A program made the position numbers and the translations under genes. Under the pieces are notes generated by a model. It had not been told where the DNA came from, did no database searches, and saw nothing but the letters and a program-made list of their open reading frames with translations. Below are positions 5,754-64,000 of a stretch of 64,000 bases of DNA, piece after piece. The DNA lies in NCBI GenBank assembly GCA_002898375.1, contig BEIN01000014.1, positions 6,712 to 70,711 on the forward strand. Direction: 5' to 3'. Source of the DNA: a bacterium HR37. GTDB taxonomy: Bacteria > Desulfobacterota_D > UBA1144 > Nemesobacterales > CSP1-2. Position 1 is the stretch's first letter. The number at the start of each line of letters is the position of its first letter.

Positions 5754-8700
5754 TCATCGGGTAAAAACCCTATATACCCTTCTCTGAAGGGAGTCCATGT
5801 ATGTGTAAACAACGGGTGTAAGATAGAGTGTTACGAGCTGTGAAAAAAGCAAACCTCCTGCTACCGAAAGCCCCAGAGAACGACGTACCTCTCCTCCTGC
5901 ACCAAAACCGATGGCAATAGGTAGTGCCCCAAAAAGAGCTGCCATGGTTGTCATCATAATGGGACGAAACCTTATAAGACATCCCTGGTATATTGCTTCT
6001 AGAGGGCTTTTACCTTCGTTTCTCTGTGCTTCCAGAGCAAAATCAATTTGCATTATTGCGTTTTTCTTAACGATTCCTATTAACATTATTAATCCTATGA
6101 ATCCGTATATGTTTAATTCAGATCTGAATAGGATCAGAGTAAGCAGGGCTCCGAATATAGCGGAGGGAAGACCGGATAAAATGGTTAGCGGATGTATAAA
6201 GCTTTCATAAAGAATGCCAAGGATCATATAGATTACCAAAACAGCAGAAACTAAAAGGAGTCCCTGGCCTCGTAAAGATGATTGGAATTCTTGTGCAGCG
6301 CCCTGAAAGCTGGTTCTTATGGTAGGTGGTAAAACCTTACGCGCAATCTCTGTTACCTTTGCGACAGCTTCACTAAGTGAGACTCCCGGTTTGAGGTTAA
6401 ACGAAATTGTAACACCGGGAAACTGTCCTATATGATTAATGGTTTGTGGCCCTGTATTCTCGTATATAGTTGCTACTGAATCCAGTGGAACAAGGTGGTT
6501 ATTTGATGAGTTTATATAAAGCATCGATAACAGTTGTGGGTTTATCTGATATTGTGGTTCCAGTTCCAGTATAACCTTATACTGGTTATTTGGAGCATAT
6601 ATGGTTGATACCCATCTATCTCCGTAAGCATCAAAAAGTGCATTTTCAATCTGGTGTGCTGTGATTCCGAGTGTAGATGCTCTATCCCTGTTTATTAAGA
6701 CGTTTATCTGGGGATTTTTAATCTGAAGATCACTTGTTACATCCTGTAGCTCTGGTACGCTTCGAAGTTTTTCTTCAAGAATTGGAGCATAGTGATAGAG
6801 CTCATCCGTATCAGGGCTCTGCAGAGTAAACTGGTAAAGACTCTTTGTAAGCTGTCCTCCTATACGGATTACGGGAGGGTTTTGCATAAAAACGCGTATT
6901 CCAGGAACCCTTGCCAGCTTTGGACGTAGCTCTTCTATTACCTGTTCTACGCTTAAATTACGTTCTGAGCGTGGTTTCAGGTGAAAAAACATTACCCCTT
7001 GATTGGAGCTTGTAGCAACGCTTGTACCTCCACCAACACTTGAGTAGAACTCTACCACGTTTGGGTCTTTACGAACGATCTCTGAAAGAGCCTTGTGTAG
7101 TTCCACCATTTTGTCAAAGGATGTTCCTTCCTGAGCTTCTGTCATAGCAAATATTATTCCCCTATCCTCATTTGGTATGAATCCTTTTGGGATCTTAAAG
7201 AATAGATATCCTGTGATAACCAAGATTGTGAGTGAGGTAATCATTGTAGCAGGGCGATGTCTTAGGACGAACTTAAGGCTTGATTCATAGGCCTTTAACA
7301 TTTGATCAAATATCTTTTCTGTAAAAAGATAGAGGCGATTGTGTTTTTGCTCCGATGGCGGGCGTAAAAAGCGGCTGCAGAGCATCGGTGTAAGGGTGAG
7401 GGAAACAAAGCCAGATATCAGGATTGCTACACATATTGTTACCGCAAATTCACGAAACAGCCTTCCGATAACACCACCCATAAAGAGTATCGGGATAAAG
7501 ACAGCTGCAAGGGAAAGAGTCATGGATAGTATGGTAAAGCTAATCTCTTTGGAGCCGTCCAGAGCTGCTTTAAGAGCTGTTTTCCCCATTTCCATATGCC
7601 GCACTATGTTCTCAAGCATCACTATAGCATCATCCACTACAAACCCTATTGCCAGAATCAGTGCCATAAGTGAGAGGTTATCCATGCTGTAACCAAGTAT
7701 GTACATAACTGAAAAGGTGCCTATTATGGATAGTGGTAGTGCAAGGCTCGGTATAACTGTAGCCGATACGTTTCGTAGGAAGATAAAGATAACCATAACA
7801 ACAAGTATTAGGGTTAAAACCATGGTAAACTGAACGTCTTTTATCGACTCAAGTATAAACTTGGAGCGATCGTAGAGTAGGTGTAGTTCAACTGAAGGAG
7901 GAATAAAAGCCCTCAGAGATGAAAGGAGTTCCTTAACTGAGCTTGCTACCTCAACGGTGTTTGTACCAGGCTGTCTCCTTACAGCCAGCACTATGGATCT
8001 TCGACTTCCCCTGTGATCCACAAACCATGCTGCAGCCTTATCTGCTTCCACACTGTCTATGACACGACCCAGTTCGCCAAGACGCACAGGGGAGCCGTTA
8101 CGGTATGCAACAATAACTGAACGATATGCATCTGCTTTAAAGAGCTGGCCGTTAGCAAGAACTGTGAATGCTTTATCAGGTCCGTAGAGGGTTCCGGTAG
8201 GAAGGTTTACATTGGCACTACGTATGGCACTTTCTACCTCATCTATTCCAATACCTCTGCTTGAAAGAGCCCGTGGGTCAAGCTGTACACGAACTGCGTA
8301 TTTCTGTGGTCCAAATATCTCTACTTGGGCTACGTCCTTAACCATGGAGATGCGTTGAGCAAGCATTGTATCGGCGTATTCGTGCAGTTCCCAGAGTGGA
8401 AGGGTAGTGGATGTTACAGCTATATAGAGAATTGGTTGATCAGCAGGATTTACCTTACGATAAGTGGGTGGCTCCGGCATATCCTGAGGTAGAAAGGGAC
8501 TGGCCTGGGCAATTGCTGTTTGAACATCCTGGGCTGCAGCATCAATGTTACGACTTAGGTCAAACTGGAGCGTAATTCTTGTAGAACCAAGTGAGTTAAC
8601 AGAAGTCATTGAAGTTAATCCCTCAATTGTTGAAAACTGTCTCTCAAGAGGAGTGGCAACAGAGGAAGCCATAGTTTCAGGGCTTGCTCCGGGCAGGCTA

Positions 8701-39152: not shown

Positions 39153-40550
39153 TTATACGTTACGTTCTACAATTTTTTCTTCTTCCGGAAAATTTTTCCC
39201 GTATTTTTTCAGCTTGTTTCTTATGGTTCTAACACTTATTCCAAGGATTCTTGCTGCTTTCGCTTTATTACCGCCTACCTCCTTGAGGGTTTTAAGTATT
39301 AACTCCCTTTCCATGCTCTCTATTTTTCCATTTGAAAAAAGGGTACTTTGTGTTTCATCCTCTAGCAGGAGTTCTTTTTCCGTTATTCTCTCACCTTTAC
39401 ATAAAAATACAGCTCTTTGTATAACGTTTTCAAGCTCTCTTACATTGCCTCTCCACTGCCTGTTTATAAGGGTTTGCATTGCCTCTTCCGAAAAGCCCTC
39501 TATTTTTTTCCCGGAGATGAGAGAGAATCTCTTCAGAAAGTGCATGGCAAGAACCGGAATATCCTCTTTCCTTTCTCTTAAAGGCGGTATCTTTAAAGGA
39601 AACACGCTCAATCTGTAGTAAAGGTCTTCTCTGAACTTTCCTTCCCTACATTCTTTATAGAGGTCTTTGTTTGTTGTGGCTATTATTCTTACATCTACCG
39701 GTATGGGTTCTCTTCCCCCTATGCGGTCTATCTCTTTTTCTTGAAGTGCTCTAAGAAGCTTTGCCTGTATGCTTGTTGGTATCTCCCCTATCTCGTCAAG
39801 AAGGAGTGTTCCCCCATTGGCAAGCTCAAATTTTCCCTTTTTCTTCTCTTGTGCTCCTGTGAAAGCTCCCTTCTCGTATCCAAAAAGTTCGGATTCAAGC
39901 AGGTTCTCAGGTATAGCAGCGCAGTTTATGGCTATAAACGCTTTATCTGACCTCTTGCTCATTCTGTGGATAAACCTTGCAAGAAGCTCTTTCCCGGTTC
40001 CACTTTCCCCATATATCAAAACTGTTATATCACTTAGGGCAAGTTCCCTGGCAAGGTTTATGATCTTTTTCATCTCGGCATTCTCTGTGATTATCTCTCT
40101 TTCCGTAATTATACGTTTCTGAAGTGAGTCTAGGGTCTTTGCAAGAGTTTCCAGTGAGAAGGGCTTTAGCAGGTACTCGGTGGCTCCCTGTTTTATCGAT
40201 TCAACCGCATTCTCAATTGTTCCAAAGGCGGTTATAACCAGTATTGGAATACCACCGAAATTCTGTCGTATCTCCTTAATAAGGGTAAGCCCATCCATAT
40301 GTGGCATTTTCATATCCGTTATAACTGCGGAAAAGCTTGTTTGCTTGAGCTTAGAAATAGCATCTTCACCCCCGGAGGAAACAATGGCTCTGTAGCCAAG
40401 CTTTTCTACTGCTTCTTTAAGCGCTAACCTCATTTGAAGTTCATCATCCACTATGAGAATCGGTTTGGTGTTTTTAAGTCTCATAAAGTCCCTCCGTGTG
40501 TTTGGAATTAGGGAAGTAGAGGCTGAACTGAGTGCCTTCCCCCTCTTCAC
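39153..40550 (-). CDS. sigma54-dependent response regulator (NtrC family; FlgR/FleR-like flagellar activator)
   Basis: REC (ILIVDDE...VITDMKMPHMDG) + AAA sigma54-activator domain (GESGTGKELLARFIH, GAFTGA) + C-terminal Fis-type HTH. The ORF-track start (GTG 40550) overlaps the kinase; ATG for MRLKNTKP ~40484 is the probable start. Confidence 0.8.
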   Translation of the reverse strand: MKRGKALSSASTSLIPNTRRDFMRLKNTKPILIVDDELQMRLALKEAVEKLGYRAIVSSGGEDAISKLKQTSFSAVITDMKMPHMDGLTLIKEIRQNFGGIPILVITAFGTIENAVESIKQGATEYLLKPFSLETLAKTLDSLQKRIITEREIITENAEMKKIINLARELALSDITVLIYGESGTGKELLARFIHRMSKRSDKAFIAINCAAIPENLLESELFGYEKGAFTGAQEKKKGKFELANGGTLLLDEIGEIPTSIQAKLLRALQEKEIDRIGGREPIPVDVRIIATTNKDLYKECREGKFREDLYYRLSVFPLKIPPLRERKEDIPVLAMHFLKRFSLISGKKIEGFSEEAMQTLINRQWRGNVRELENVIQRAVFLCKGERITEKELLLEDETQSTLFSNGKIESMERELILKTLKEVGGNKAKAARILGISVRTIRNKLKKYGKNFPEEEKIVERNV

Positions 40551-41643
40551 TCCATACCCTTACGTATCCATTGTGGTTTTGCATTATCTTTAACACTATT
40601 GTAAGTCCAAGCCCCGTTCCCGTTTCTTTCGTACTGAAGAAAGGATCGAAAATCCTTTCCATGTTTGCTTTCTTTATCCCGACACCATTGTCTTTTATAT
40701 CCACTATCGTAAAGTCCTCTTCCTCTCTCATGTTTATCTCTACCCTCCCGTTATCTGACTTTATGGCCTGAATGGAGTTTATAATTACATTCATAAAGGT
40801 CTGTTTTAAGAGCTCCCTATCACCGAGTATGGTGCTATCCGTTAGTGTTTTCTTAAGAGAAACTCTTCTTGTTTCGATCAATGGCATAAGCATCTCTAAA
40901 ACCTCTTCTATTACGTTTCGTAACTTAACGGTTTTTCTCTGCAATTTGTGGTCTCTTACAAAAGAGAGCATATTTGTTAAGGTATTGTTTAGATTGCTTA
41001 TACCAACTGATATCCCGATTGCAAACCTCTCTAGGTCCTTTCCTTCAAGTTCCTTCTCCAGGATGTTGGCAAACAACTCTATGCTGCAGAGGGAATTCCT
41101 TATTTCGTGTGCTATCTTTGTAATCATCTCTCCCATTGCTATAAATCTTTTGTTCCTTTCATGCTGAATCTCAATTTCCTTTAATCTGGTTATATCCTTG
41201 ATCAGGATTACGCTTCCACGGAGGTTTCCCTTTGAGTCAATAATTGGTGAACGTGAAAATATTATGTGGTAGCTCTTGTCCCTTACCTTTAAAAATGTAT
41301 CAGGTTCGTCCGTTATTATTGAGCACTCAAGGGAGCCAAAGTTTTTCCCTATAACCTCTTGAGCGTTTAATCCTAAAATTCTCTCTGCTGACCTGTTTAT
41401 TGTGGTTATCCTCTCTTCCTGATCCACAACGATTATAGCCTCTTCCAGGTTGTAGAGAACTGCATTTAGGTAATCCCTGCTTTTTTCCGCCTCACTTAGG
41501 GCAATTTCAAGTTGCTCATTTTTCCTTTTTAATTCCGTTGTCAGGTAGTTGACTTTTTCCTGAAGCTGTTTGTAGTATGATTCAAGGTTTTTAGAGGCCA
41601 CAACGAAGTTCTGAAATGCTTCATTTAGACGTTCTATGTTCAT
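40474..41643 (-). CDS. cytoplasmic PAS-domain sensor histidine kinase (FlgS/FleS-like)
   Basis: 389 aa with no TM; coiled coil, PAS, HisKA H-box (AHEIRNSL), HATPase N/G boxes. Confidence 0.8.
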   Translation of the reverse strand: MNIERLNEAFQNFVVASKNLESYYKQLQEKVNYLTTELKRKNEQLEIALSEAEKSRDYLNAVLYNLEEAIIVVDQEERITTINRSAERILGLNAQEVIGKNFGSLECSIITDEPDTFLKVRDKSYHIIFSRSPIIDSKGNLRGSVILIKDITRLKEIEIQHERNKRFIAMGEMITKIAHEIRNSLCSIELFANILEKELEGKDLERFAIGISVGISNLNNTLTNMLSFVRDHKLQRKTVKLRNVIEEVLEMLMPLIETRRVSLKKTLTDSTILGDRELLKQTFMNVIINSIQAIKSDNGRVEINMREEEDFTIVDIKDNGVGIKKANMERIFDPFFSTKETGTGLGLTIVLKIMQNHNGYVRVWSEEGEGTQFSLYFPNSKHTEGLYET

Positions 41644-43436
41644 TAAAGCTCTCCTTTAATCAGTTCTTCTATTTCCAGCTCTTTTAAGGTAACTTCCCTA
41701 ATCTGCTTCATTATGCCCTTTGTCTGCTCTATCCTTGAGATTGGTTCCTTCTCCCCTGTGAGTTTTGAGAGCATATAGTTTGCCCAGTCTCTATCATTTG
41801 CTACCCCACTGATTTTGCTCTCATTCTTTATAGATGATGCAATCCTGTAGTATCGAAGTGCATCTGTTGGCCTGTTGGTCTGATAGAGGGCATCAGCAAG
41901 TGTTATGTATTCGCCCTGAGATGCTTTTGTTTCTTTTAGGGATGCTTCGTAGAAATCCAAAACTTCCTTCTTATCTTTTAACCCGTTTAGCATGCTTGAT
42001 AGTAAGGCAAGGTCTTCTCTTTTTATATCACTTATGGACTGTATGGTTTTAAAGGCTTCATGGTATCTGTGATCAAGCTTTAAGATCCTTGCTTTAATAC
42101 GAAGCACTCTATCATCTTCTTCGTTTATGTACTCTGCTATGTATTTTAGTGCCTGTGTCTTATCCCCCATTTCTGTAAAGAATTCAGCCATATAGAGGCT
42201 GCCTTTACGTTTTGCTCCACCTCGGGTGTTTTCTGCAAGCCACTTTGATAGCTCTAAGAAAGGCATCCGGTTCTCTCTTAACCAATCCAAAATCTTTACG
42301 AGAAACTCCGAGTTTGAGGGTTTCATGAAAAACCTTTTACAGGTATTCCAGAGTTTTAGGAATCCTTCCGGGTCTTTCTCTTTTAAATCGGTAAGGATCA
42401 ACCTTATTTCCTCAAGGGCATCCGGATCCGGATTGGCTCTAAATACTAGCTCCTTAAGCAGTTTTATGGATTCCTCAAGTTTTCCAGCTTCTTTATAAAA
42501 AGTTGCAAGTGCTATGGTTGCCTTATCGTATTCTTCACTGTAGGGATATTCATTTCTTATCTGCAAGAGTATGGGGATTGAGTCTTGTGGTCTTTGCTGT
42601 TTCATGTACAAATCTGCAAGGTAAAGGAGGGCTTTACTTCGTGTTTTTCTCTGTAAAGCCTTTGAGGCTGAGGTAAAGAGCCTTATGGCCGATTCAAAAT
42701 TGTTTTCTTTGACTTCAATAAGCCCAAGGCTTATTTCAGCTCTAGAGGTTATATCAGGATCCCTGGATTCATTTATTATTGAGGCTAGATAGACTCTTGC
42801 ATCCTGAAGTTTGCCCATCTGACGAAGGTTTTCTGCAAGATTGTATCTCGTCTCTAAAGACGACCCTAGATATCCAACTTCCCTTGTTATAAGGGACATG
42901 TATAAATTATAAGCCTCTTTGGTTTTCCCCATAGCCTGAAGACAGTTGGCTTTTCCATATAAGGCTGCTACTGTGTTTCCCAGCTTCTCGTATTGTTCTA
43001 TTGCTTGATCATATAGACCAAGCTTGTACATGGAGTCGGCAAGGCCAAGCTGTGCTCTTTTGTAAAGAGGGGATTTGGGGAAGGTAAGGAGGAAAAGCCT
43101 GAAGCAAGCAGCGGCTTCTTCATAGAATCCGGATTCAAAATAGGCTCTGGCTCTCTGTAGCAGGGAGTGCTCTTTTATTTGCTGATCCGTGGATAGTATA
43201 TAGGCCAATCTAAAGCGGTTTATAGATTCATATGTTCTTCCTGTAAGGAAAAGGGCCTGTCCATAAAGAAAGTTGTATATTGGAAGCTCTCTATCCTCTG
43301 GAATATGTTTGGAGAGTATATTAAGAACCTCCTCAGTATTTCCTCTGTCAAGGAGTTCAACTACCTTTCTAAGGCTGGAATCAGGATAACCCTCTGCAAG
43401 GAAGGATAGAAGAACAAAGGCCATAAGCATCTTCAT
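41643..43436 (-). CDS. secreted tetratricopeptide-repeat protein
   Basis: 597 aa; N-terminal signal peptide MKMLMAFVLLSFLA; many TPR units (AxxxYxxAL... repeats). Confidence 0.7.
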   Translation of the reverse strand: MKMLMAFVLLSFLAEGYPDSSLRKVVELLDRGNTEEVLNILSKHIPEDRELPIYNFLYGQALFLTGRTYESINRFRLAYILSTDQQIKEHSLLQRARAYFESGFYEEAAACFRLFLLTFPKSPLYKRAQLGLADSMYKLGLYDQAIEQYEKLGNTVAALYGKANCLQAMGKTKEAYNLYMSLITREVGYLGSSLETRYNLAENLRQMGKLQDARVYLASIINESRDPDITSRAEISLGLIEVKENNFESAIRLFTSASKALQRKTRSKALLYLADLYMKQQRPQDSIPILLQIRNEYPYSEEYDKATIALATFYKEAGKLEESIKLLKELVFRANPDPDALEEIRLILTDLKEKDPEGFLKLWNTCKRFFMKPSNSEFLVKILDWLRENRMPFLELSKWLAENTRGGAKRKGSLYMAEFFTEMGDKTQALKYIAEYINEEDDRVLRIKARILKLDHRYHEAFKTIQSISDIKREDLALLSSMLNGLKDKKEVLDFYEASLKETKASQGEYITLADALYQTNRPTDALRYYRIASSIKNESKISGVANDRDWANYMLSKLTGEKEPISRIEQTKGIMKQIREVTLKELEIEELIKGEL

Positions 43437-43490: not shown

Positions 43491-44912
43491 CTATTCGTTC
43501 TCGGTATTTTCCTGGTCTAATCCCATTCTCTTTAGTTTCTCTATAAGGGTTGTCCTTTTTATACCCAATAGCTTTGCAGCTTTACTTTTTGTTCCCTTTG
43601 CTTTTTTTAGGGCTCTTAGTATCAGGGCTTTCTCTATCCTGTAAAGGGTTTTCTCAAGATTGATTTCATCTTTACCCTGTAGAAGGTAGTGTTCGAACTC
43701 CTCTCTTTCCGTTATTCTAAGACTCTCAGGGGATTGGGATCTGGTAAGGAACCTCTCCGGTAGGTCGGAAACATTAACCCTATTTCCCCTTACAAGGATC
43801 ATAAGGCTTTCTACAAGGTTCCTCAGTTCCCTTACATTACCAGGCCAGCTATAGTTCATAAGATGTTCCATTGCTTCTGCTGTAAACTCAAAAGGGTTCC
43901 TTTTCATCTTTTTTGAGAACTCGTTTATATAGTAATCAAGAAGCAATGGAATGTCCTCTCGGCGTTCCCTTAGAGGGGGTATGTGGATCTGAACCACATT
44001 TAGCCTGTAAAATAGGTCATCTCTGAATTTCCCTATCCTTGTCAGTTCTTCGAGATCCCGGTTTGTTGCAGCTATTATTCTTACATCTACTTTTATCGTT
44101 TTAATCCCTCCAACCCTTTCAAATTCCTTTTCCTGAATTGCCCTTAACAGCTTTGCCTGAAGGGAAGGTTCTAGATCCCCTATCTCATCTAGAAACAGAG
44201 TTCCATGGTTGGCAAGTTCAAAACGACCTATACGTGTACTGAAGGCTCCTGTAAACGCTCCCTTTTCGTGTCCAAAGAGTTCTGACTCTAGGAGGCTGGC
44301 GGGGATTGCGGCACAGTTTACAGGTATAAAGGGTTTTTGTGCCCTTGGGCTATTAAAGTGTATGGTTCTTGCAATTAGCTCCTTTCCTGTTCCGCTCTCC
44401 CCAGTAATAAGCACAGTACAGTCAGTATCAGATATCTTCTCTATCAACTCGTATAGTTTTAACATCTTTGGAGAGATGCCTATAAGGCCTTTGAAGCTGT
44501 ATTTCTTCCTTAGTTCCTCTCTGAGTATGGCATTTTCCCTTTTAAGCCTGGAAACCTCTATTGCCCTGTTAATGGTTATTATAAGCTCATCCACGTTAAA
44601 AGGTTTGGTTACGTAATCAAAAGCCCCAAGCTTCATGGCCTCAACTGCGGTGTCTACACTGGCAAAGGCTGTAACCACTATGACGGGAACATCTATCTTT
44701 GATGCAGATATCTCTTTTAACACATCCAGACCGCTGATTCCACAGGGCATAACCAGGTCTGTTAACACAAGATGGAATTTCTCCTTCCTTAACAGCTCAA
44801 GGCCTTGGGCCCCACTGTAGGTTGCTGCAACTTCGAAACCACGCTCTTTTAAAACCAGTGAGATGTAATCTGCAAGGGTCTGGTCATCTTCGATAATCAG
44901 GATTCTTTGCAT
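43491..44912 (-). CDS. second sigma54-dependent response regulator (NtrC family; FleQ/FlrA-like position)
   Basis: REC with an intact phospho-Asp context (ILIIEDDQT...LVLTDLVMPCGISG...VTKPF) + GESGTGKELIARTIH/GAFTGA + C-terminal HTH. Confidence 0.8.
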   Translation of the reverse strand: MQRILIIEDDQTLADYISLVLKERGFEVAATYSGAQGLELLRKEKFHLVLTDLVMPCGISGLDVLKEISASKIDVPVIVVTAFASVDTAVEAMKLGAFDYVTKPFNVDELIITINRAIEVSRLKRENAILREELRKKYSFKGLIGISPKMLKLYELIEKISDTDCTVLITGESGTGKELIARTIHFNSPRAQKPFIPVNCAAIPASLLESELFGHEKGAFTGAFSTRIGRFELANHGTLFLDEIGDLEPSLQAKLLRAIQEKEFERVGGIKTIKVDVRIIAATNRDLEELTRIGKFRDDLFYRLNVVQIHIPPLRERREDIPLLLDYYINEFSKKMKRNPFEFTAEAMEHLMNYSWPGNVRELRNLVESLMILVRGNRVNVSDLPERFLTRSQSPESLRITEREEFEHYLLQGKDEINLEKTLYRIEKALILRALKKAKGTKSKAAKLLGIKRTTLIEKLKRMGLDQENTENE

Positions 44913-53951: not shown

Positions 53952-54719
53952 ATGTTGAGGGGAAAGACAGATGTGAAGCCTTTAGCCAGTTTGGACCTAG
54001 GGTATAAGAGGGAATTGGGTGAGGAGGAGAAGGAAAAGATAATAAGGGATTTTCTCCCTTTTATAAAGTACACAGCCTATAGGCTTGCATGGAGACTCCC
54101 ACCCCAACTTTCGGTAGAGGATCTTATAAGTGCCGGGATTGTAGGGCTTTTGGAGGCTCTTCAAAGGTATAAAGAGGGAGTGGCAAGGCTCAGTACCTTT
54201 GTAGAATCAAGGATAAGGGGAGCAATGCTTGATGAGCTTAGGTCTCAGAGTTGGATACCAAAGTCTATGAAAGAAAAAATCAGTGCGGTTAAGAAAACCT
54301 ATCTGGAGCTTGAATCAAAACTTGGCCGTCCACCAGAAGCAGAAGAGGTTGCTAAAAAGCTTAATATTTCGGTTGATGAGTACTATAAGATACTTCAGAG
54401 TGCAAATATGGAAGTGGTACTGAATTTTGAAAGTTTTAAGGAAAAAAACAGAAACGAAGAAAGCGTGGATCTGCTTGAGTATATTTGCGATCCTGATGCT
54501 AAAACCCCTCTTTCCGTATTAGAGGAGAGTCAGGTTAGGGAGGCAATTGCAAAAGTTATAGAAGAACTTCCTGAAAAAGAGAAGCTTGTTCTTTCACTTT
54601 ACTACTGGGAAGAGATGACCATGAAGGAGATAGGGAAGATTTTAAATATTACGGAGAGCAGGGTTTCGCAGCTACACAATCAGGCACTTTTAAGACTTAA
54701 AGCAAAACTCAATTTGTAG
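53952..54719 (+). CDS. fliA: RNA polymerase sigma factor sigma28
   Basis: 255 aa; sigma70 region 2 and region 4 HTH (MTMKEIGKILNITESRVSQLHNQALLRLK). Confidence 0.85.
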   Translation: MLRGKTDVKPLASLDLGYKRELGEEEKEKIIRDFLPFIKYTAYRLAWRLPPQLSVEDLISAGIVGLLEALQRYKEGVARLSTFVESRIRGAMLDELRSQSWIPKSMKEKISAVKKTYLELESKLGRPPEAEEVAKKLNISVDEYYKILQSANMEVVLNFESFKEKNRNEESVDLLEYICDPDAKTPLSVLEESQVREAIAKVIEELPEKEKLVLSLYYWEEMTMKEIGKILNITESRVSQLHNQALLRLKAKLNL

Positions 54720-56149
54720 TGGGTTTACCGCTCATGCAATTAAGTAGGCTTTTAAAGTTAATTGAAGAACTTTCCCACCCGGATCCTTTAAAAAGATACC
54801 GGGCTGCGGAGGCACTGGGACACGGGGATGAAAGGGCAATTTATCCCTTGATAAAGGCGTTACGTGATAGAGATCGGGGTGTCCAGGATGCAGCTATGCG
54901 TTCCCTTATATCCATAGGTGGTGAGGTCACAGCGTATATGGTGTTGCCACTTTTAAGAGATGAGCCATCGTTAATAAGTATGGCTATCGTAATACTGAAG
55001 GGCATAGGAACTGTGTCACTGCCCCTACTTCGTTCTCTTTTAAAGGATAAAGATGACACTGTCCGTCAACTTGCACTTTATCTTATCTCCGAGATCAAAG
55101 TATGCGATTATCCAGAGGATATTGTAAGGATCCTTGAAACGGATCCCAGTCCGAATGTTAGGGCATCTGCTGCACGTGTTCTCGGTGTTATTAAGTATAA
55201 AGAGGCCCTGCCCCAATTGGTTAACGCTTTAAGCGATAGTGAGTGGGTTTGCTTCTCAGCTCTTGAATCCATTGCCTTAATGGGAGATGAATCCTCTGCT
55301 GGGTTTATTGTTCCCCTTCTAAACAGTAAATCAGAGGCTATAAGGTGTGCTGCTGTTGAGGTACTGAGCAGGATAGGGGGAAAGGTATCTGTTAATGCAC
55401 TATTAAAGCACCTATCAAAAGCAGAGGGATTTGAAAAGAAAAACGTTGTAAAAAGCATGATTAAGATGGGAATATGTCCTGCTGTACCAGGGGTCTCTGA
55501 TGTGCTTATTGATATGCTAAGAAGTGGTGATTGGGGGGAGAAGATAACAGCTATAGAGAAGCTAATTGATCTTGGAGAAAAAGATGCAGTTTATCATATT
55601 GTGGACCTGGCAGGTTCACTTGATCCATCTGAGCCGGGAAATGAGGAGAGGATCTCTACCATTAAGGATCTTCTTTGTCGTTTTGGCTGTATAAGTGTTT
55701 TTGTAGATATAATTGCGGACCCATCTTTTAAATTCAGAGGAAAAACAATTGCAATTGATGTTATCAGAAGGCTTAGGTGCAGGGAAGCTATTCCTTCTCT
55801 CATGCAACTACTGGATACGGATATAAGGGATATAAGGCGGGCAAGTATGGAGGCTTTAGGAGATATGGGTTGTTACGGAGCAAAATCAGCAATGATTAAG
55901 GCGCTGGAGGATTTTGATGGCGGTGTAAGAAGATCTGCAGTTTTGGCTTTAGGGAAGCTAAAGGATAAGGGGGCTTTCGAACCGATTCTTAATCTGTTGT
56001 CCAGGGAGAAGAATCCAGAGGTAGTTGAGGAGGCAATTAAATCTCTTCTTGCAATAGATTCAGAAAGGTTCTTATTCTGCCTAAGTAGGCTGGATCCTGT
56101 ACTCAGAGAAATCGTTACTCGTTACAAAGAGCAACTGGAATGGGTATAG
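54719..56149 (+). CDS. HEAT-repeat (PBS-lyase type) protein embedded in the fliA-che operon
   Basis: 476 aa of ~14 tandem HEAT_EZ-like repeats (xxVRxxAAxALGxIGx). GTG start overlaps the fliA stop; ATG at ~54734 is an alternative start. Confidence 0.6.
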   Translation: MGLPLMQLSRLLKLIEELSHPDPLKRYRAAEALGHGDERAIYPLIKALRDRDRGVQDAAMRSLISIGGEVTAYMVLPLLRDEPSLISMAIVILKGIGTVSLPLLRSLLKDKDDTVRQLALYLISEIKVCDYPEDIVRILETDPSPNVRASAARVLGVIKYKEALPQLVNALSDSEWVCFSALESIALMGDESSAGFIVPLLNSKSEAIRCAAVEVLSRIGGKVSVNALLKHLSKAEGFEKKNVVKSMIKMGICPAVPGVSDVLIDMLRSGDWGEKITAIEKLIDLGEKDAVYHIVDLAGSLDPSEPGNEERISTIKDLLCRFGCISVFVDIIADPSFKFRGKTIAIDVIRRLRCREAIPSLMQLLDTDIRDIRRASMEALGDMGCYGAKSAMIKALEDFDGGVRRSAVLALGKLKDKGAFEPILNLLSREKNPEVVEEAIKSLLAIDSERFLFCLSRLDPVLREIVTRYKEQLEWV

Positions 56150-56959: not shown

Positions 56960-57331
56960 ATGAGGGCACTTATAGTAGATGGTTGTAAAACCACCAGAAG
57001 GCTTCTAGGTATGTACCTTAAATCAATGGGTTTTGAGGTTGTTTTTGCTGAAAACGGACTGGATGCTTTAGAAAAGCTTGTAGATGCCGATATTAATCTT
57101 ATATTGGTTGAGCTCTATTTGCCTTATATGGATGGCATCGAGTTTGTAAAGACGGTTAAAACCAACCCTCTGAGTGTGGATATACCGGTTCTTATGGTAA
57201 CTACAGAGAGTGATAGGGAGAAAAAGGAGATGGCAATAAGAGCCGGGGTGGATGGCTACATTGTAAAACCTGTAACTGCTGATCTCTTATTGCGTCATAT
57301 TGAGGATGTGTTAAAAATCAAACCTATTTAA
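56960..57331 (+). CDS. CheY-like receiver with substituted phospho-acceptor (D-to-E) and DD-to-DG metal site
   Basis: ORF track starts at 56894; the likely start is ATG 56960 after GGAGG. Aligned with the adjacent canonical CheY: LIVDG (not VVDD), [13 protein letters not shown] (Asp57 position is Glu); Thr (LMVTTE) and Lys (YIVKP) are retained. Confidence 0.65.
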
Positions 57332-57341
57332 GGAGGTTTCT

Positions 57342-57740
57342 ATGTTTAATCCCAAGATGAAAATACTTGTTGTAGATGACTTTCCAACGATGAGACGCAT
57401 TATAAAAAACCTTCTTAAACAGCTGGGCTATGAGAACATAGAGGAAGCTGAGGATGGTATACAGGCGTATTCAAAACTGAAAAACAACGGATTTGAGTTC
57501 ATTGTATCTGACTGGAATATGCCCAATATGGATGGGTTTGAGCTTCTTAAAAAGGTTAGAAGTGATCCTCAGCTAAAGGATATTCCCTTTCTTATGGTTA
57601 CGGCCGAGGCTGAAAAGGATAAGGTGATAGAAGCTATAAAGGCGGGTGTGAGCAACTACATTGTAAAACCTTTTACGGCTGAGGTTCTTAGGGAAAAAAT
57701 GGACAGGATTATGGAAAAGCTCAAAAAACAGGAGCGGTAA
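57342..57740 (+). CDS. cheY: chemotaxis response regulator
   Basis: 132 aa; [13 protein letters not shown]...[12 protein letters not shown]...LMVTAEA...YIVKPF; all five conserved CheY residues present. Confidence 0.9.
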
Positions 57741-57745
57741 AGGAT

Positions 57746-59413
57746 ATGTCCGGTGAGATGGAGGAAGTGGTAACAGAGTTTATACTGGAGTCAAAAGAAT
57801 CGTTAGATAAGCTGGACTCTCTCTTTGTTGAATTTGAGGAGAAGGGATACGATAAAGCTATAGTCAATGAGATTTTCAGGATAGTCCATACTATTAAGGG
57901 TGCAGCTGGTTTTCTTGGATTTAAATCCATAGTGGATATATCTCACGGGGCAGAAAATATCTTAAAAAAGCTAAGGGATGGTGAGATCCCGCCTACAGAT
58001 AGGCTGATTGATGTACTCCTTAAAAGCACCGATAAACTTAGGGTTCTTATTAACCACATTGAAACAGGGAATAGTTTTAACGAGGATGTTGGTGAGTTGG
58101 TAAAAGAGCTTGAGGATTCCCTTAAGGAAGCACAATCAAAAGGGCAGAAGATGGTTCGGTCAGAATCTGCTCTGGAAGCCGAAAATCAGGTGCCGATAGA
58201 TTATGAGAAAGCGGTTTTTGAGAGAAGAGAGAGAGTCCAGACACTAAGGGTTGATGTGGAGAGGCTAAATGAGGTAATGGATCTTACGGGGGAGGCAGTT
58301 TTAATAAGAAACAGGCTTTTAAATATTGCAGGTTACTTTGAGAGAAAGTTTGCAGACGATCCGTATGTAAAGGGTTTCCTTGAAGCGGTCTCATCTCTTA
58401 ACCTTGTAACCTCTGATATGCAGATTGCTGTTATGAAAATGAGGATGCAGCCAATAAGCAGGGTTTTTAACAAATTCCCCCGCCTTGTAAGGGATATATC
58501 TAAATCACTCGGGAAAGAGGTTGAACTTAGGATTTCAGGAGAAAACACAGAAGTTGATAAATCGGTTATTGAGGAGATAGATGACCCCCTTGTTCATCTT
58601 ATGCGAAACGCAATAGACCATGGCATAGAAACCCCTGAGGAAAGAAGGGCAAAGGGTAAACATGAAAAAGGTATTATTTCCATAAATGCCTTTCAAAGGG
58701 GAAAACAGATTATTATAGAGATCTCGGATGATGGTAGAGGACTGGATGTGGAGAGGATAAAGGGAAAGGCAATCGAAAAGGGAATTATAACCGAGGATGA
58801 GGCACAAAGGATGTCGGAGGATCTGGCTATAAACCTTATCTTTACGCCAGGCTTTTCTACGGTTGATGTTTCTACCGAGTTTAGCGGACGTGGTGTTGGA
58901 ATGGATGTTGTTAAAACAGCCGTCTCTAAGCTAAATGGGTATATAGAGGTTTTTTCGAGAAAGGATAAGGGGACAACATTTAGAATAAGCATTCCCCTTA
59001 CCCTTGCAATAATTCAGGCCATAATAGTGCGGTCTATGGGGGTTCAGTATGCTATTCCTCTAAGCTCGGTTGAGGGGCTCTTAAAGTTGGGTTCCAGCGA
59101 TGTAAGAAAAGTATCAGGAAAGAGAATGCTTTGCGTACGTGAGAAAACCCTTCCGCTTTTTGACCTCTCAGCTCTACTGGGTTTTGGGTGTGGTGAGGGA
59201 ATACAATGTGAATACGGTGTTGTTATCGCGGTAGGGGAAAGACGGTTTTGTATTTCTGTGGATGAGCTCCTTGGACTTGAGGAGATTGTGGTTAAACCAA
59301 TTACTGGCTTGGATGTATCATCTTCCTACGTTGTCGGAGCAACAATAACTGGAGATGGAAGTGTTGTGCTTATTCTTGACCCATCGGGAATTGCAAGGGG
59401 TATTTTTGGATGA
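57746..59413 (+). CDS. cheA: chemotaxis histidine kinase
   Basis: 555 aa; Hpt (HTIKGAAGFLGF), dimerisation and HATPase domains (N box DHGIE, G1 DDGRGLD, G2 GRGVGMD), C-terminal CheW-like domain. Confidence 0.9.
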   Translation: MSGEMEEVVTEFILESKESLDKLDSLFVEFEEKGYDKAIVNEIFRIVHTIKGAAGFLGFKSIVDISHGAENILKKLRDGEIPPTDRLIDVLLKSTDKLRVLINHIETGNSFNEDVGELVKELEDSLKEAQSKGQKMVRSESALEAENQVPIDYEKAVFERRERVQTLRVDVERLNEVMDLTGEAVLIRNRLLNIAGYFERKFADDPYVKGFLEAVSSLNLVTSDMQIAVMKMRMQPISRVFNKFPRLVRDISKSLGKEVELRISGENTEVDKSVIEEIDDPLVHLMRNAIDHGIETPEERRAKGKHEKGIISINAFQRGKQIIIEISDDGRGLDVERIKGKAIEKGIITEDEAQRMSEDLAINLIFTPGFSTVDVSTEFSGRGVGMDVVKTAVSKLNGYIEVFSRKDKGTTFRISIPLTLAIIQAIIVRSMGVQYAIPLSSVEGLLKLGSSDVRKVSGKRMLCVREKTLPLFDLSALLGFGCGEGIQCEYGVVIAVGERRFCISVDELLGLEEIVVKPITGLDVSSSYVVGATITGDGSVVLILDPSGIARGIFG

Positions 59414-60648
59414 GTGCAATATCAAAGGAGGAAATCATGGAGCAGTATATTGGATTTTATCTCGACCAAAATGAGTATATGATTCCTGTATTAAATGTAC
59501 GGGAGATTATAAATATGCCCCCTATAACAAGGATTCCCCTGGCTCCTGCCTATATCGAAGGGGTTACAAACTTGAGAGGAGTTGTGGTTCCTTTGGTTAA
59601 TCTCAAAAAGCTTATGGGATTGAAGGGGATGGAAAAGAATGAGGCGGTAGGTTATGAATTGGGTAATAAGGTTATCATAATAACTCATGGAGGCATGCTT
59701 TTTGGTGTGGTTGTAGATAAGGTAAGCGGTATAATAAGTGTGGAGGAATCAAGTATTGAAGCAACAGAGAGTGTTTTCCACAGCTCTTTAGAGCAAGCTG
59801 AGGGTATAGTTAAACTTAAAGACCGGGTTGCTGTTTTGCTTGATACAAAGAGGTTGCTTCCCGAAGGAGAGCTGGAGGTGTTTGAGGATCTTCTGGTTTC
59901 TTTTAAGGAAAGAGAAGATGGGAAGGTTGAGTTAACCAAAAAAGTTCAGACGATGGGTGGAGAAATTACGGTTAAGGAGCTTAAGGATGCAAGGGATTTC
60001 TTTGAAAAAAGGAAAGCGGACTCTGGTGATCCAAGATATATGGTTCTTGATGATATAGTGGATTTTATAAATGCCCTTGCTGAATGTGACTATGATAGAG
60101 CGGATAGGGTTATTCAGAACATGATAAAGAAGGGACAGGATGAACTTTTTAGTGAGATAGGGAAAATAACAAGGAAACTTCATGATACTATTAAGAGCTT
60201 TAAACAGGCTATTGATCCAAAGATAAAGGAAGTGGCGATGAGAGAGATACCTAGTACAATCGAGTCACTTGAGTTTGTTATTGAGAAATCAGAAGAAGCT
60301 GCAAATAAAACAATGAGCATAGTTGAGAAGTATATACTGGGTATGGATGATCTTGATACCCATATAAAGAGGCTTAGCGGACCGGAAGTATCGGTAGAGT
60401 ACCTAAAGAACTTTAAAAATAACCTGGAGGATGACCTGATTGAAGTGCTTACAACTCAGTCCTTTCAGGATATAACGGGACAGCTTATAAAGAAGGTAAT
60501 AAAGCTTATAGGGGATATAGAAGAGGAACTTGTAAGGCTTATAAAGAACTTTGGTGAAAGGGTGGAGGTGGGCTATAGAACTGAGGCAACTTCCCAGAAG
60601 ATAACCCAGGCCGATGTTGATGAGCTTTTAAGAGAGTTTGGGTTCTAA
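59410..60648 (+). CDS. CheW-like domain fused to a CheZ-like CheY-P phosphatase domain
   Basis: N-terminal ~150 aa CheW fold (YIGFYLDQNEYMIPVLNVREII...GVTNLRGVVVPLVNL). C-terminal region has the CheZ catalytic motif TQSFQDITGQLIKKVIKLI and a CheZ-like C-terminal CheY-docking helix ADVDELLREFGF. Probable start at the internal ATG ~59437 after AGGAGG. Confidence 0.7.
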   Translation: MSAISKEEIMEQYIGFYLDQNEYMIPVLNVREIINMPPITRIPLAPAYIEGVTNLRGVVVPLVNLKKLMGLKGMEKNEAVGYELGNKVIIITHGGMLFGVVVDKVSGIISVEESSIEATESVFHSSLEQAEGIVKLKDRVAVLLDTKRLLPEGELEVFEDLLVSFKEREDGKVELTKKVQTMGGEITVKELKDARDFFEKRKADSGDPRYMVLDDIVDFINALAECDYDRADRVIQNMIKKGQDELFSEIGKITRKLHDTIKSFKQAIDPKIKEVAMREIPSTIESLEFVIEKSEEAANKTMSIVEKYILGMDDLDTHIKRLSGPEVSVEYLKNFKNNLEDDLIEVLTTQSFQDITGQLIKKVIKLIGDIEEELVRLIKNFGERVEVGYRTEATSQKITQADVDELLREFGF

Positions 60649-60653
60649 AGAAG

Positions 60654-61688
60654 ATGATAAGGGTTCTTATAGTTGATGACTCAGCATTTATGAGAAATGC
60701 CCTAAAGACCATGCTTTCTTCCGATCCCGAGATCGAGATTGTAGGTGTTGCACGGGATGGAGTAGAAGCAATAGAGAAGGTTATGAGTTTAAACCCTGAT
60801 ATAGTGACAATGGATGTAGAAATGCCCAGAATGGATGGTCTTACAGCACTAAAACGTATTATGGAGATAAAACCCGTTCCGGTAATTATCGTAAGTTCTC
60901 TGACGTCTGAGGGAGCAAAGGTTACACTTGATGCCCTTGATATCGGTGCTGTGGATTTCATCCCCAAAAACCTATCCGAGCTTTCAGTAGATATTGTGAA
61001 GTTAAAAGAATTGCTTATTGAGAAGGTGAAAAAAGTTGCCGGGAGAAAAAATATAAGAAAAAGGGTAAGTCCCTTTCCTTATAAATCAAACGAGGTTAAC
61101 AGGGCTCACCTAACCTCAAGTAGAAAAATAGGGGTCGTTGCTATAGGAACCTCAACAGGAGGTCCAAGGGCACTTCAGGAGATCATCCCAAAACTGCCAA
61201 AGAACTTTCCGGTTCCAATTGTAATTGCCCAGCATATGCCTGCAACCTTTACCGGACCCTTTGCCGAAAGACTAAACCAGATAAGTCAGATTACAGTTAA
61301 AGAAGCTGAGGATGGAGAGGTCTTGAAACAAGGGGTTGCTTTTATCGCACCGGGAAGGGGGCATATGAGACTGCGAAAAAGGGGTATAGAAACCGTTATC
61401 TCCATAACAAGTGATGATGAGTATATATACCGCCCATCGGTTGATCTTCTTATGACCTCAGTTGCAGAGTGTTTTCCGGGAAAGGCCCTTGGTGTGATAC
61501 TTACCGGTATGGGAAATGACGGTCTTAAGGGTATTTCTGCCTTAAGAGAAAGTGGGGGAAAGGTGATTGCACAGAATGAGGAGACGTGTGTGGTATATGG
61601 AATGCCAAAGGCAGTGGTTGAGGCAGGATTGGCGGATAAGGTTTTACCTCTGGAAGATATAGCTGGTGAGATAGTGAGTTCTCTCTAA
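60654..61688 (+). CDS. cheB: chemotaxis methylesterase/deamidase
   Basis: REC (ILIVDDSAFMR...VTMDVEMPRMDG) + CheB catalytic domain (VAIGTSTGGPRAL...). Confidence 0.9.
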   Translation: MIRVLIVDDSAFMRNALKTMLSSDPEIEIVGVARDGVEAIEKVMSLNPDIVTMDVEMPRMDGLTALKRIMEIKPVPVIIVSSLTSEGAKVTLDALDIGAVDFIPKNLSELSVDIVKLKELLIEKVKKVAGRKNIRKRVSPFPYKSNEVNRAHLTSSRKIGVVAIGTSTGGPRALQEIIPKLPKNFPVPIVIAQHMPATFTGPFAERLNQISQITVKEAEDGEVLKQGVAFIAPGRGHMRLRKRGIETVISITSDDEYIYRPSVDLLMTSVAECFPGKALGVILTGMGNDGLKGISALRESGGKVIAQNEETCVVYGMPKAVVEAGLADKVLPLEDIAGEIVSSL

Positions 61689-61908: not shown

Positions 61909-63537
61909 ATGGACTTCTTTAGGAATGTAAATACTCGATCGAAACTCATTATGTGTTTTGCTGTTTTGATGGTGGTTATTTTAATTCCGGGTGCAATGAA
62001 TCTATATCAACTTATGTCTATGAAAGAATCAATACAGATGATATATAAAGACCGGTTAATACCACTTGTTGATCTTGGTGAAATAAGTTATGAACTTTCA
62101 AATCTAAGAATAGGAGCTCTACAGATTGTAGGTGAGCCTGATGAATCTAAAAGAAGGGCTATATTTGAGAGGGCTAAAAACAGTGTAGTAAAAATTGAAA
62201 AGCTTATTGAGAAGATCAGCAGAACAAACCTTGTACCCGAGGAGAAAAAGGTATTAGATGAGCTTATTGTGGCATGGAACAGCTACAATATATCAAGACA
62301 GAATACCTACAATTTGGCAATTGAAGGAAAGCTTGAAGAGGCAAGACAAAATGCCCAGACGGATGCAGCAGTTAAGTTCAAAAGCGTTGCAGAGAAGATT
62401 CAAAGATTGATTCAGATACAAGATGAGGTTACCAAATCTGTATATGAGGAAGCCTCTAAGAGCTATGTGTCTTCAAGAAATACAATAATAGGGCTAGGTA
62501 CTTTTGCAGTTGTAATAGCATCTGCCTTTGTGCTGGTTCTTACAAAACTCATAGCAAATCCCCTTGCTGATTTTACCAATATAGCTAACAGAATAGCAAA
62601 TGGTGAGCTTGATGTAACGATTGAATCAAGAGGAAGAGATGAGATAGGACAGTTATCCGGTGCCATGAAAAAGATGTTAGAGAATCTAAAGGAGATTATA
62701 GGAGGTATAAAGTCGTCTGCTGACAACCTTGCTTCTGCAAGTCAGCAACTTTCGGCAAGTTCAGAGCAGATGTCAAAGGGAATTGCACAGCAGGTGAGCA
62801 AAGCATCTCAGATTGCAACATCCTCAACTGAGATGTCTCAGAGCATAGTTGATATAGCAAAGAATGCTTCAGATATGGCTTCATTTGCTACTGAGGCTGT
62901 AAGGGTAGCACGTGAAGGGGAGAGAGAAGTTAGTAAATCCATAGAGGAGGTTAATGCAATAGCAAGTGTGGTGAACGAATCTTCGGGTCTTATAGTATCT
63001 CTTGGTAGCCGTTCAAGGCAGATAAGTGAAATAGTAACCGTAATAAAAGACATTGCTGATCAGACAAATCTTCTTGCTCTAAACGCTGCGATTGAGGCTG
63101 CAAGGGCTGGAGAGCAGGGAAGGGGGTTTGCCGTGGTTGCAGATGAGGTACGAAAACTTGCTGAGAGAACCACAAAGGCAACACAGGAAATAGAGGGGAT
63201 GATAAAGACCATTCAGGGTGATGTGGACAGAGCCGTTTCATCCATGGAGGGTGCAACAAAGAAGGTTGAAAAGGGGGTTGAGCTTTCAAAAAAAGCAGGC
63301 AAAGCCCTACAAGATATAGTAAACAGCGTTACCAATCTTCAGTCAATGGTTCAGCAGATAGCTTCTGCAACTGAGGAGATGTCAGCTGTATCCGAGCAGA
63401 TAACTCAGGATATAGAAATGATTGCCGGTGTTACAAATGAAACATCTTCAAATGCTACCCAGATATCTCAGGCATCGGCTGATTTGGCAAGGCTTGCAGC
63501 TAGCCTTGAGGGTATGGTTTCACAGTTTAGGATTTAG
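61909..63537 (+). CDS. methyl-accepting chemotaxis protein with periplasmic sensor region, HAMP and MCP signalling domain
   Basis: 542 aa; TM1 near residue 15, TM2 near residue 200, HAMP, highly conserved hairpin tip [35 protein letters not shown]. Confidence 0.9.
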
Positions 63538-63558
63538 GAAGGTAACAGGAGGGGTGGA

Positions 63559-64000
63559 ATGAGGTTGAATTCGGATGTACTACAGCTTGTAACGTTTAGA
63601 CTCGGGGAAGAAGAATATGCTATAGATATTCTAAAGGTTCAGGAAATTATAAGAATGGTTGAAGTAACACCAATTCCAAATGCTCCATATGTTGTTGAGG
63701 GTGTTATTAACCTTAGGGGAAGAGTTATACCCGTAGTAAACTTAAGAAAAAAGTTTGGAGTACAGGGGGATTGCAGTACCGCTCAGTCAAAGATTATAGT
63801 GGTAGATATAGGTATAATCTGTGGTCTCATCGTTGATACTGTTTCAGAGGTGTTAAGACTTCCTCTAGATAGCGTAGAACCCCCTCCTTCTTTTGCAAAT
63901 AATGCTGGTTCTAGGGCTATAAAAGGGATTGGAAAATTAGACGACAGGCTCCTAATACTCCTTGAGGTATCCAGGCTTTTTGAGAACTCTGAGTTGAACA
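63559..64000 (+). CDS. cheW: chemotaxis coupling protein CheW (3' end beyond the window)
   Basis: Hand translation from ATG 63559 after GGAGGGG: MRLNSDVLQLVTFRLGEEEYAIDILKVQEIIRMVEVTPIPNAPYVVEGVINLRGRVIPVVNLRKKFG... No stop before the window end, so it is absent from the ORF track. Confidence 0.8.
   Translation, partial: MRLNSDVLQLVTFRLGEEEYAIDILKVQEIIRMVEVTPIPNAPYVVEGVINLRGRVIPVVNLRKKFGVQGDCSTAQSKIIVVDIGIICGLIVDTVSEVLRLPLDSVEPPPSFANNAGSRAIKGIGKLDDRLLILLEVSRLFENSELN

Follow-up and report, generated by a model that had tools for sequence, protein, structure and literature searches.

The window analysed here is a stretch of 64,000 nucleotides from bacterium HR37 (GenBank assembly GCA_002898375.1, contig BEIN01000014.1, positions 6,712 to 70,711 of the forward strand), in which a chemotaxis operon contains, directly 3′ of cheA, a gene whose product joins an N-terminal CheW-like domain to a C-terminal CheZ module. 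A preliminary description, made from the sequence, had proposed one polypeptide with both domains, encoded between cheA and cheB, and both statements held: the reading frame runs for 412 codons without an internal stop, and the two Pfam families that the description had named were matched far above their cutoffs. In particular, PF01584 (CheW) was found with an E-value of 2.7e-34 and a score of 118.2 bits (cutoff 23.5) over positions 1-135 of the 138 in the profile, while PF04344 (CheZ) was found in the C-terminal half with an E-value of 5.2e-32 and a score of 111.8 bits (cutoff 30.7). Moreover, no Pfam match to a Response_reg domain appeared in the fusion, so the architecture is not that of CheV. 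The extent first given to the gene (59410-60648) was right in its frame and needs correction at its start. The ATG at 59410 shares the sequence ATGA with the stop codon of cheA and may be used, but the true start is probably the ATG at 59437 (Met10), giving a product of 403 amino acids, because an AAGGAGG motif precedes it at a spacing of 5 nt, the corresponding NCBI models (P0007/P0008) are 403 amino acids long and the homologues start with MQQYIGF.

The identity of both halves was also found in structural databases. When the fusion was searched against the sequences of the PDB, its N-terminal half matched CheW proteins (2HO9, E=8e-19), and the only match of its C-terminal half was E. coli CheZ (1KMI); a family profile of 17 members likewise had 1KMI chain Z as its sole match (E=1.7e-15). 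Furthermore, the modelled CheW half, with a predicted local distance difference test (pLDDT) score of ~65-83, was matched by Foldseek to 6s1k_C (E=2.5e-12, template-modelling (TM) score 0.80), as well as to 2ch4_W and 4jpb_A, with target-normalised TM scores of 0.80-0.82, which points to the two-subdomain beta-barrel of CheW and CheA-P5. For the CheZ module, an all-helical secondary structure was predicted, with helices at residues 208-279, followed by a long hairpin (281-321/325-384), a variable and flexible tail, and a C-terminal helix (400-409). Standalone CheZ relatives align with the fusion from about residue 212 on, and in the linker that precedes this point a short beta-meander was predicted at low confidence (residues 163-193), then helices. 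Among 80 family members, the mean pairwise identity was 61% in the CheW domain, 46% in the linker and 60% in the N-terminal helices of CheZ, rising to 72% in the hairpin and 78% in the C-terminal peptide, the linker being the least conserved region of the fusion and the C-terminal peptide the most conserved. As the values of the CheW domain and of the N-terminal CheZ helices are alike, both halves are under comparable constraint.

Distribution of the fusion

A scan that started from an alignment and covered one genome for each species yielded 291 loci encoding a relative of the query; of these, the best 80 were fetched (L001-L080) and analysed together with the window, making 81 loci for the analysis of open reading frames. 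All of these best 80 loci matched the fusion over residues ~12-412, and the architecture may be present in up to 291 species-level genomes; the co-occurrence of both domains across genomes, to which the preliminary description had pointed, was thus found in the best 80 of the 291 species-level loci. That description had also raised the case of two separate frames arising from a sequencing frameshift, and the fusion was instead a single open reading frame in 80 of the 81 loci (79 of the 80 fetched and the window). The sole exception was L042 (~8480..8560), where a frameshift occurs a few codons past a homopolymer of eight A (A8) and the contig ends inside the gene, so that a sequencing error or a pseudogene is the most likely explanation of the split between cheW and cheZ. 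Moreover, proteins that were identical or at least 98% identical appeared in many independent assemblies (P0001-P0010). When the linker and CheZ half was searched exhaustively with HMMER against 1.84 billion cluster representatives, 1084 matches were returned, and among the best 150 of them at least 16 separate clusters at 50% identity had an N-terminal CheW domain; the 10 clusters of those 16 that were checked were all CheW plus CheZ according to Pfam.

The possibility that the fusion is an artefact, arising from a frameshift or from a chimeric assembly of adjacent cheW and cheZ genes, would find support in L042, in which CheW and CheZ appear as separate frames. However, the break in L042 adjoins the A8 homopolymer in a gene that runs into the end of its contig, while nearly identical proteins from many independent assemblies, single frames in all other loci and the diversity of at least 16 clusters argue against such an origin, which was rejected and whose probability is considered practically negligible.

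The named organisms with the fusion belonged to the Nitrospirota (Thermodesulfovibrionales, Dissulfurispiraceae), the Thermodesulfobacteriota and the 'Deltaproteobacteria'. The fetched loci were mostly from Thermodesulfovibrionales and Dissulfurispiraceae, and most of the bearers are uncultured. A few contigs had implausible taxon labels, namely L072 (Nitrososphaeria archaeon), L045 (Smithellaceae) and L025/L031 (Nitrospira), which are probably mis-binned contigs of metagenome-assembled genomes (MAGs). In a crude neighbour-joining tree of CheZ modules, the 17 fused tips (16 cluster representatives and the window) fell into one clade of 28 tips, which suggests a single origin of the fusion; the other 11 tips of this clade had no recognisable CheW domain, and at least one of them (P0124) is a fragment of a fusion.

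Conserved residues and a candidate mechanism

The catalytic and CheY-binding features of CheZ were found in the C-terminal half. The preliminary description had assigned a catalytic FQDITGQ motif with its Gln/Asp pair and a C-terminal CheY-binding peptide, and the alignments agreed with both assignments. D354 corresponds to D143 of E. coli CheZ and Q358 to Q147, in BLASTP and family-profile alignments alike, and the two residues were invariant in 61-80 homologues. The surrounding F352, Q353, T356 and G357, together with the C-terminal VDxLLxxFGF, were invariant or nearly so (18-61 aligned homologues). The predicted peptide QADVDELLREFGF stands at the extreme C-terminus, where DVDELLREFGF aligns with QVDDLLDSLGF of E. 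coli by BLASTP and by the profile alignment; in this peptide, V403, L406, L407, F410, G411 and F412 were invariant. On the other hand, residues 92-99 of E. coli CheZ, including D(D/E)WF, fell in a gap of the BLASTP alignment, and residues 92-129 were skipped by the family profile. In E. coli, D(D/E)WF is located at the tip of the hairpin (residues 95-98) and binds the short form of CheA (CheA-short) (PMC7750401). Because this tip falls in the alignment gap, the localisation device of E. coli is absent from the fusion, with the CheW domain being present instead.

For the CheW half, the interface residues of E. coli CheW were taken from Table 1 of a 2026 review (PMC13098124) and, for the salt bridge between R62 and E38, from PMC3828127, and they were mapped on 80 fused CheW domains and on 24 standalone CheW proteins of the same loci. 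E. coli CheW contacts the receptors through I33, V36, I39, V105, V108, E38 and R62, and CheA-P5 through T46, N60, G63 and P67 (PMC13098124). At the five hydrophobic receptor-contact positions (I33, V36, I39, V105 and V108), only I or V was found in the 80 fused domains, and E38 and R62 (E32 and R56 of the fusion), as well as G57, G99 and G133, were invariant in them. Regarding the contacts to CheA-P5, Gly was found at position G63 in 79 of the 80 fused domains, and the interface-1 positions T46, N60 and P67 were each kept in 79 of 80; across all 80, the listed contacts to receptors and to CheA-P5 were either unchanged or replaced conservatively. It is from the conservation of these interface residues that we infer a delivery of the phosphatase to the array by the CheW domain.

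Taking both halves together, it is considered quite likely that the fusion works as a CheZ phosphatase in dimeric form, which its CheW domains would anchor at the array beside CheA and plain CheW, and in which Q358 and D354 would hydrolyse phosphorylated CheY (CheY-P). According to this proposal, the CheW domain would dock at CheW positions of the array, on receptor tips and/or on CheA-P5, alongside the separate CheW. Characterised CheZ proteins dimerise through their CheZ modules, and for that reason the fusion would probably pair up into a unit with two CheW anchors. This would place the CheZ bundle next to CheA, the site where CheY-P is formed, the C-terminal peptide would capture CheY-P, and Gln358 and Asp354 would catalyse the hydrolysis of the acyl phosphate. 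The net effect would be a covalent co-localisation of kinase and phosphatase, which in E. coli is achieved non-covalently via CheA-short.

Several points weigh against this proposal. The position of D107 was Gly in 80 of the 80 fused domains, compared to E or D in 22 of the 24 standalone CheW proteins, and N50 was mostly replaced by Gln in the fused domains while being Asn in the standalone ones; both changes could shift the specificity for partners. The NCBIfam equivalogs PRK11166 and PRK10612 found both families at scores far below their cutoffs (63.5 against 257 bits and 80.8 against 260 bits, respectively), so by sequence the fusion does not reach the level of an orthologue of enteric CheW or CheZ. 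In addition, the AlphaFold2 monomer had a pLDDT of 56 for the full protein and 51 for the CheZ half, and Foldseek returned no significant PDB match for the monomer model of the CheZ half; since this is a monomer model of a presumably obligate dimer, this null result is treated as uninformative rather than negative, and the four-helix-bundle dimer is assumed here from homology. Furthermore, a dimer with two CheW domains on linkers of ~60 residues may not fit the canonical CheW sites, and the literature yielded no experiment on any member of the CheW-CheZ family.

The dimer with two CheW anchors could also be more than a passive tether and be arranged differently, in CheW-only rings or as a bridge between neighbouring rings of the receptor lattice, so that the signalling state of the receptors, acting via their contact with CheW, could gate the phosphatase activity or its access to CheY-P and exert push-pull control. 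In such a design, coupling might run through the Gly that the whole family has at the receptor-contact position of D107 and through the conserved linker motifs. We know of no chemotaxis system in which receptor control over both kinase and phosphatase has been described, and this arrangement is regarded as quite unlikely.

The operon and alternative roles of the fusion

The genes around the fusion are tightly packed, with cheB starting 6 nt past its stop codon (Table 1). In nearly every fetched locus that was long enough, the gene order was flhF-flhG-fliA-HEAT repeat protein-cheR-REC-cheY-cheA-cheWZ-(mcp)-cheB-(mcp)-(cheW).

Table 1. Features of the fusion gene and of the surrounding chemotaxis operon, with positions in the window and residues counted in the 412-amino-acid frame
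Feature	Position	Strand	Basis
cheW-cheZ fusion gene, longest open reading frame, 412 amino acids plus stop	59410..60648	+	Open reading frame listing, sequence
AAGGAGG ribosome-binding site, 5 nt before ATG 59437	59425..59431	+	Sequence, NCBI models, homologue N-termini
CheW-like domain, residues 12-151	59443..59862	+	Pfam PF01584, PDB matches, model, interface residues
Fusion-specific linker, residues ~152-211	59863..60042	+	Conservation, model, CheZ alignment limits
CheZ module, residues ~212-412	60043..60645	+	Pfam PF04344, 1KMI_Z profile match, predicted secondary structure
Catalytic motif QSFQDITGQ, residues 350-358	60457..60483	+	Sequence, BLASTP, profile alignment
Predicted C-terminal CheY-binding peptide QADVDELLREFGF, residues 400-412	60607..60645	+	Sequence, BLASTP, profile alignment
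Receiver paralogue, pseudo-receiver with D57E and D13G	56960..57331	+	Open reading frame listing, Pfam, residue check
Canonical cheY (D12, D13, D57, T87, K109), presumed substrate	57342..57740	+	Pfam, residue check
cheA: Hpt, dimerisation, HATPase_c and CheW-like P5 domains; no P2	57746..59413	+	Open reading frame listing, Pfam
cheB, REC plus methylesterase	60654..61688	+	Open reading frame listing, Pfam
Methyl-accepting chemotaxis protein gene, by sequence similarity only	61909..63537	+	Match to open reading frames of the size of such receptors at the equivalent position in related loci
Standalone cheW, at least 147 amino acids, runs off the window end	63559..64000	+	Pfam CheW, E=3e-40

The standalone cheW at the end of the window adds to the preliminary description. 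It is preceded by an AGGAGG motif (63547-63552), and its product shares 39% identity with the CheW domain of the fusion. The idea that the fusion was the only CheW of this operon is ruled out by this canonical gene, and the fusion is therefore an additional CheW-like component and not necessarily the coupling protein. Nevertheless, the fusion might act as the principal coupling protein in the rings of CheA-P5 and CheW, leaving the separate CheW as an auxiliary or for other receptors, in which case each core signalling unit would have its own phosphatase. Such a role would agree with the conserved interface-1 residues, with the position of the fusion right behind cheA, the usual place of cheW, with its occurrence in all 80 loci, and with the presence of a standalone cheW in only 24 of the 81 loci (19 of the 59 with at least 7.5 kb downstream), although these counts cover the fetched flanks, so that absence from a flank is not absence from the genome. 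The canonical cheW in the window's own operon speaks against it, as does the 1:1 ratio of phosphatase to kinase at the array that would result, which would be a very strong sink, and such a role is judged unlikely.

The cheA of the operon has only ~40 residues between P1 and P3, which means that it has no P2, the CheY-binding domain. In E. coli, P2 and the C-terminal peptide of CheZ bind the same surface of CheY. The CheZ half could be mainly a CheY dock that replaces P2, and not a phosphatase, or else the CheW domain could stay outside the arrays and bind CheA-P5 or free receptors in soluble form. The lack of P2 and the shared CheY surface would be in line with a dock, and the family-specific changes D107G and N50Q could alter binding. 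However, the invariant catalytic Asp and Gln are hard to account for without catalysis, the conservation of the receptor-contact residues argues against a soluble binder, and over half of all CheA proteins have no P2 and no such replacement (PMC10782961). These roles are thus seen as very unlikely, and the suggestion that the missing P2 is a special trait, offset by the CheZ peptide, was downgraded since more than 50% of CheA proteins are without this domain (PMC10782961).

Two receiver genes precede cheA. The preliminary description had reported one canonical CheY and one pseudo-CheY next to the fusion, which is correct for the window, where the latter carries D57E, at the phospho-acceptor position, and D13G, but the pseudo-CheY is specific to this lineage. 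At its position, 75 of 76 orthologues keep D12, D13, D57, T87 or S87, and K109, and for this reason the pseudo-receiver is a recent change in the lineage of the window, in an operon type that ancestrally has two ordinary CheY proteins. The pseudo-receiver with D57E is possibly a phosphomimic.

Among the flagellar switch genes in the window, FliM and a FliN of 111 amino acids were found, with no CheC or CheC-like domain; as FliN is without such a domain, there is no FliY-type phosphatase among these motor genes. Just upstream of the fliL-fliM-fliN cluster, two sigma-54-dependent response-regulator activators with REC, AAA+ and HTH_8 domains (39153..40550 and 43491..44912, both on the minus strand) flank a gene for a TPR protein of 597 amino acids (41643..43436, minus strand); the two activators look ordinary and are probably regulators of the flagellar hierarchy. 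Furthermore, a protein with HEAT/PBS-lyase repeats is encoded between fliA and cheR (54719..56149, plus strand), with 476 amino acids here and usually ~615 in relatives. Its gene was present at the same position in nearly every related locus (L001-L080) long enough to show it, and the protein is a conserved component of the chemotaxis/flagellar operon.

Relation to known systems and significance

The closest comparison is E. coli CheZ (1KMI), which shares with the fusion the DxxxQ motif with the preceding xxxFQ, the CheY-binding peptide at the C-terminus, and the succession of an N-terminal helix, a helical hairpin, a flexible linker and a C-terminal helix. Both proteins are next to the kinase, presumably so in the case of the fusion. 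However, their identity is ~24% and the hairpin of the fusion is ~21 residues shorter by BLASTP, and the targeting of the fusion would be covalent, via its N-terminal CheW domain, instead of relying on a non-covalent contact with an isoform of CheA. CheV, which consists of a CheW domain and a receiver, coexists with plain CheW, and its receiver is thought to be a phosphate sink in some species. It resembles the fusion in that a CheW-like domain brings a second chemotaxis module to the array beside plain CheW, and both would remove phosphoryl groups, but the receiver of CheV accepts phosphate from CheA while the CheZ module of the fusion would act catalytically on CheY-P. The fusion shares its design principle with others that join a CheY-P phosphatase or an adaptation enzyme to a structural part of the array or of the motor; in FliY, the phosphatase is at the motor and not at the receptors. 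The CheZ proteins of H. pylori (localised by ChePep) and A. caulinodans are without the tip that binds CheA-short and are brought to the pole in other ways (PMC7750401), namely through a separate partner or their own N-terminal helix, whereas in the fusion the candidate targeting device is a CheW domain in the same polypeptide.

The closest relatives without a CheW domain were the 'long CheZ' proteins of Desulfobacterota (for example Desulfacinum infernum WP_073039759, 446-468 amino acids), with 31-41% identity. They share with the fusion the presence of an N-terminal appendage, which comprises 200-300 residues in the 'long CheZ' and in which neither a CheW domain nor any other Pfam match was found; by eye, parts of this extension resemble an Hpt helix without its His and the end of the ATPase domain of a kinase. 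Such proteins, of 350-530 amino acids, were seen in Desulfacinum, Desulfatibacillum and Thermodesulfobacteriota MAGs (P0148, P0152, P0155, P0170 and P0179). Other unusual CheZ fusions were observed in metagenomes (P0175, P0192 and P0199/P0290, with 538-721 amino acids, and P0139, with 367), in which a weak HATPase_c match or an FKBP-type isomerase is followed by CheZ.

Regarding the prior record, the preliminary description knew of no characterised CheW-CheZ fusion. No characterising paper was found, although the architecture itself is already on record: PGAP names the fusion either 'protein phosphatase CheZ' or 'CheW', JGI gives it a double name, and Vass, Bourret and Foster 2022 (bioRxiv 10.1101/2022.05.07.491035) include CheW-CheZ among the rare CheW architectures under their abundance threshold. 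This one sentence was the only mention found, and it does not go into the distribution of the architecture, its operon context, its residues or its function. The literature search returned no study of the distribution, operon or function of CheW-CheZ, and an earlier mention in comparative surveys is possible. The fusion is therefore a conserved, uncharacterised variant of a well-known system, neither rare nor unseen, and fusions among che components are a familiar theme, so the surprise to specialists would be mild. Because current annotation labels it with only one of its two domains, 'CheZ' or 'CheW', both components may be miscounted in automatic censuses of these genomes.

The placement of the CheY-P phosphatase with respect to the kinase has long been discussed as a design feature of chemotaxis networks, CheZ being at the array via the short CheA in E. 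coli, localised through ChePep in Helicobacter, and the phosphatase being at the motor in Bacillus. Modelling suggests that the localisation of the phosphatase shapes the sharpness of the response and adaptation, and it links co-localisation with the kinase to a sharper response and to adaptation that is more robust (PMC1447658). In a natural and conserved CheW-CheZ protein, the phosphatase would be kept beside the kinase by a built-in covalent link to CheW, and the protein would thus be a natural test case for phosphatase localisation, in which the removable CheW domain would offer a simple genetic handle; it would also provide a marker of fixed stoichiometry for cryo-electron tomography of arrays. 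Finally, the fusion marks the layout of the chemotaxis pathway of the Thermodesulfovibrionales and their relatives, a group that is large, important in the environment and for the most part uncultured.

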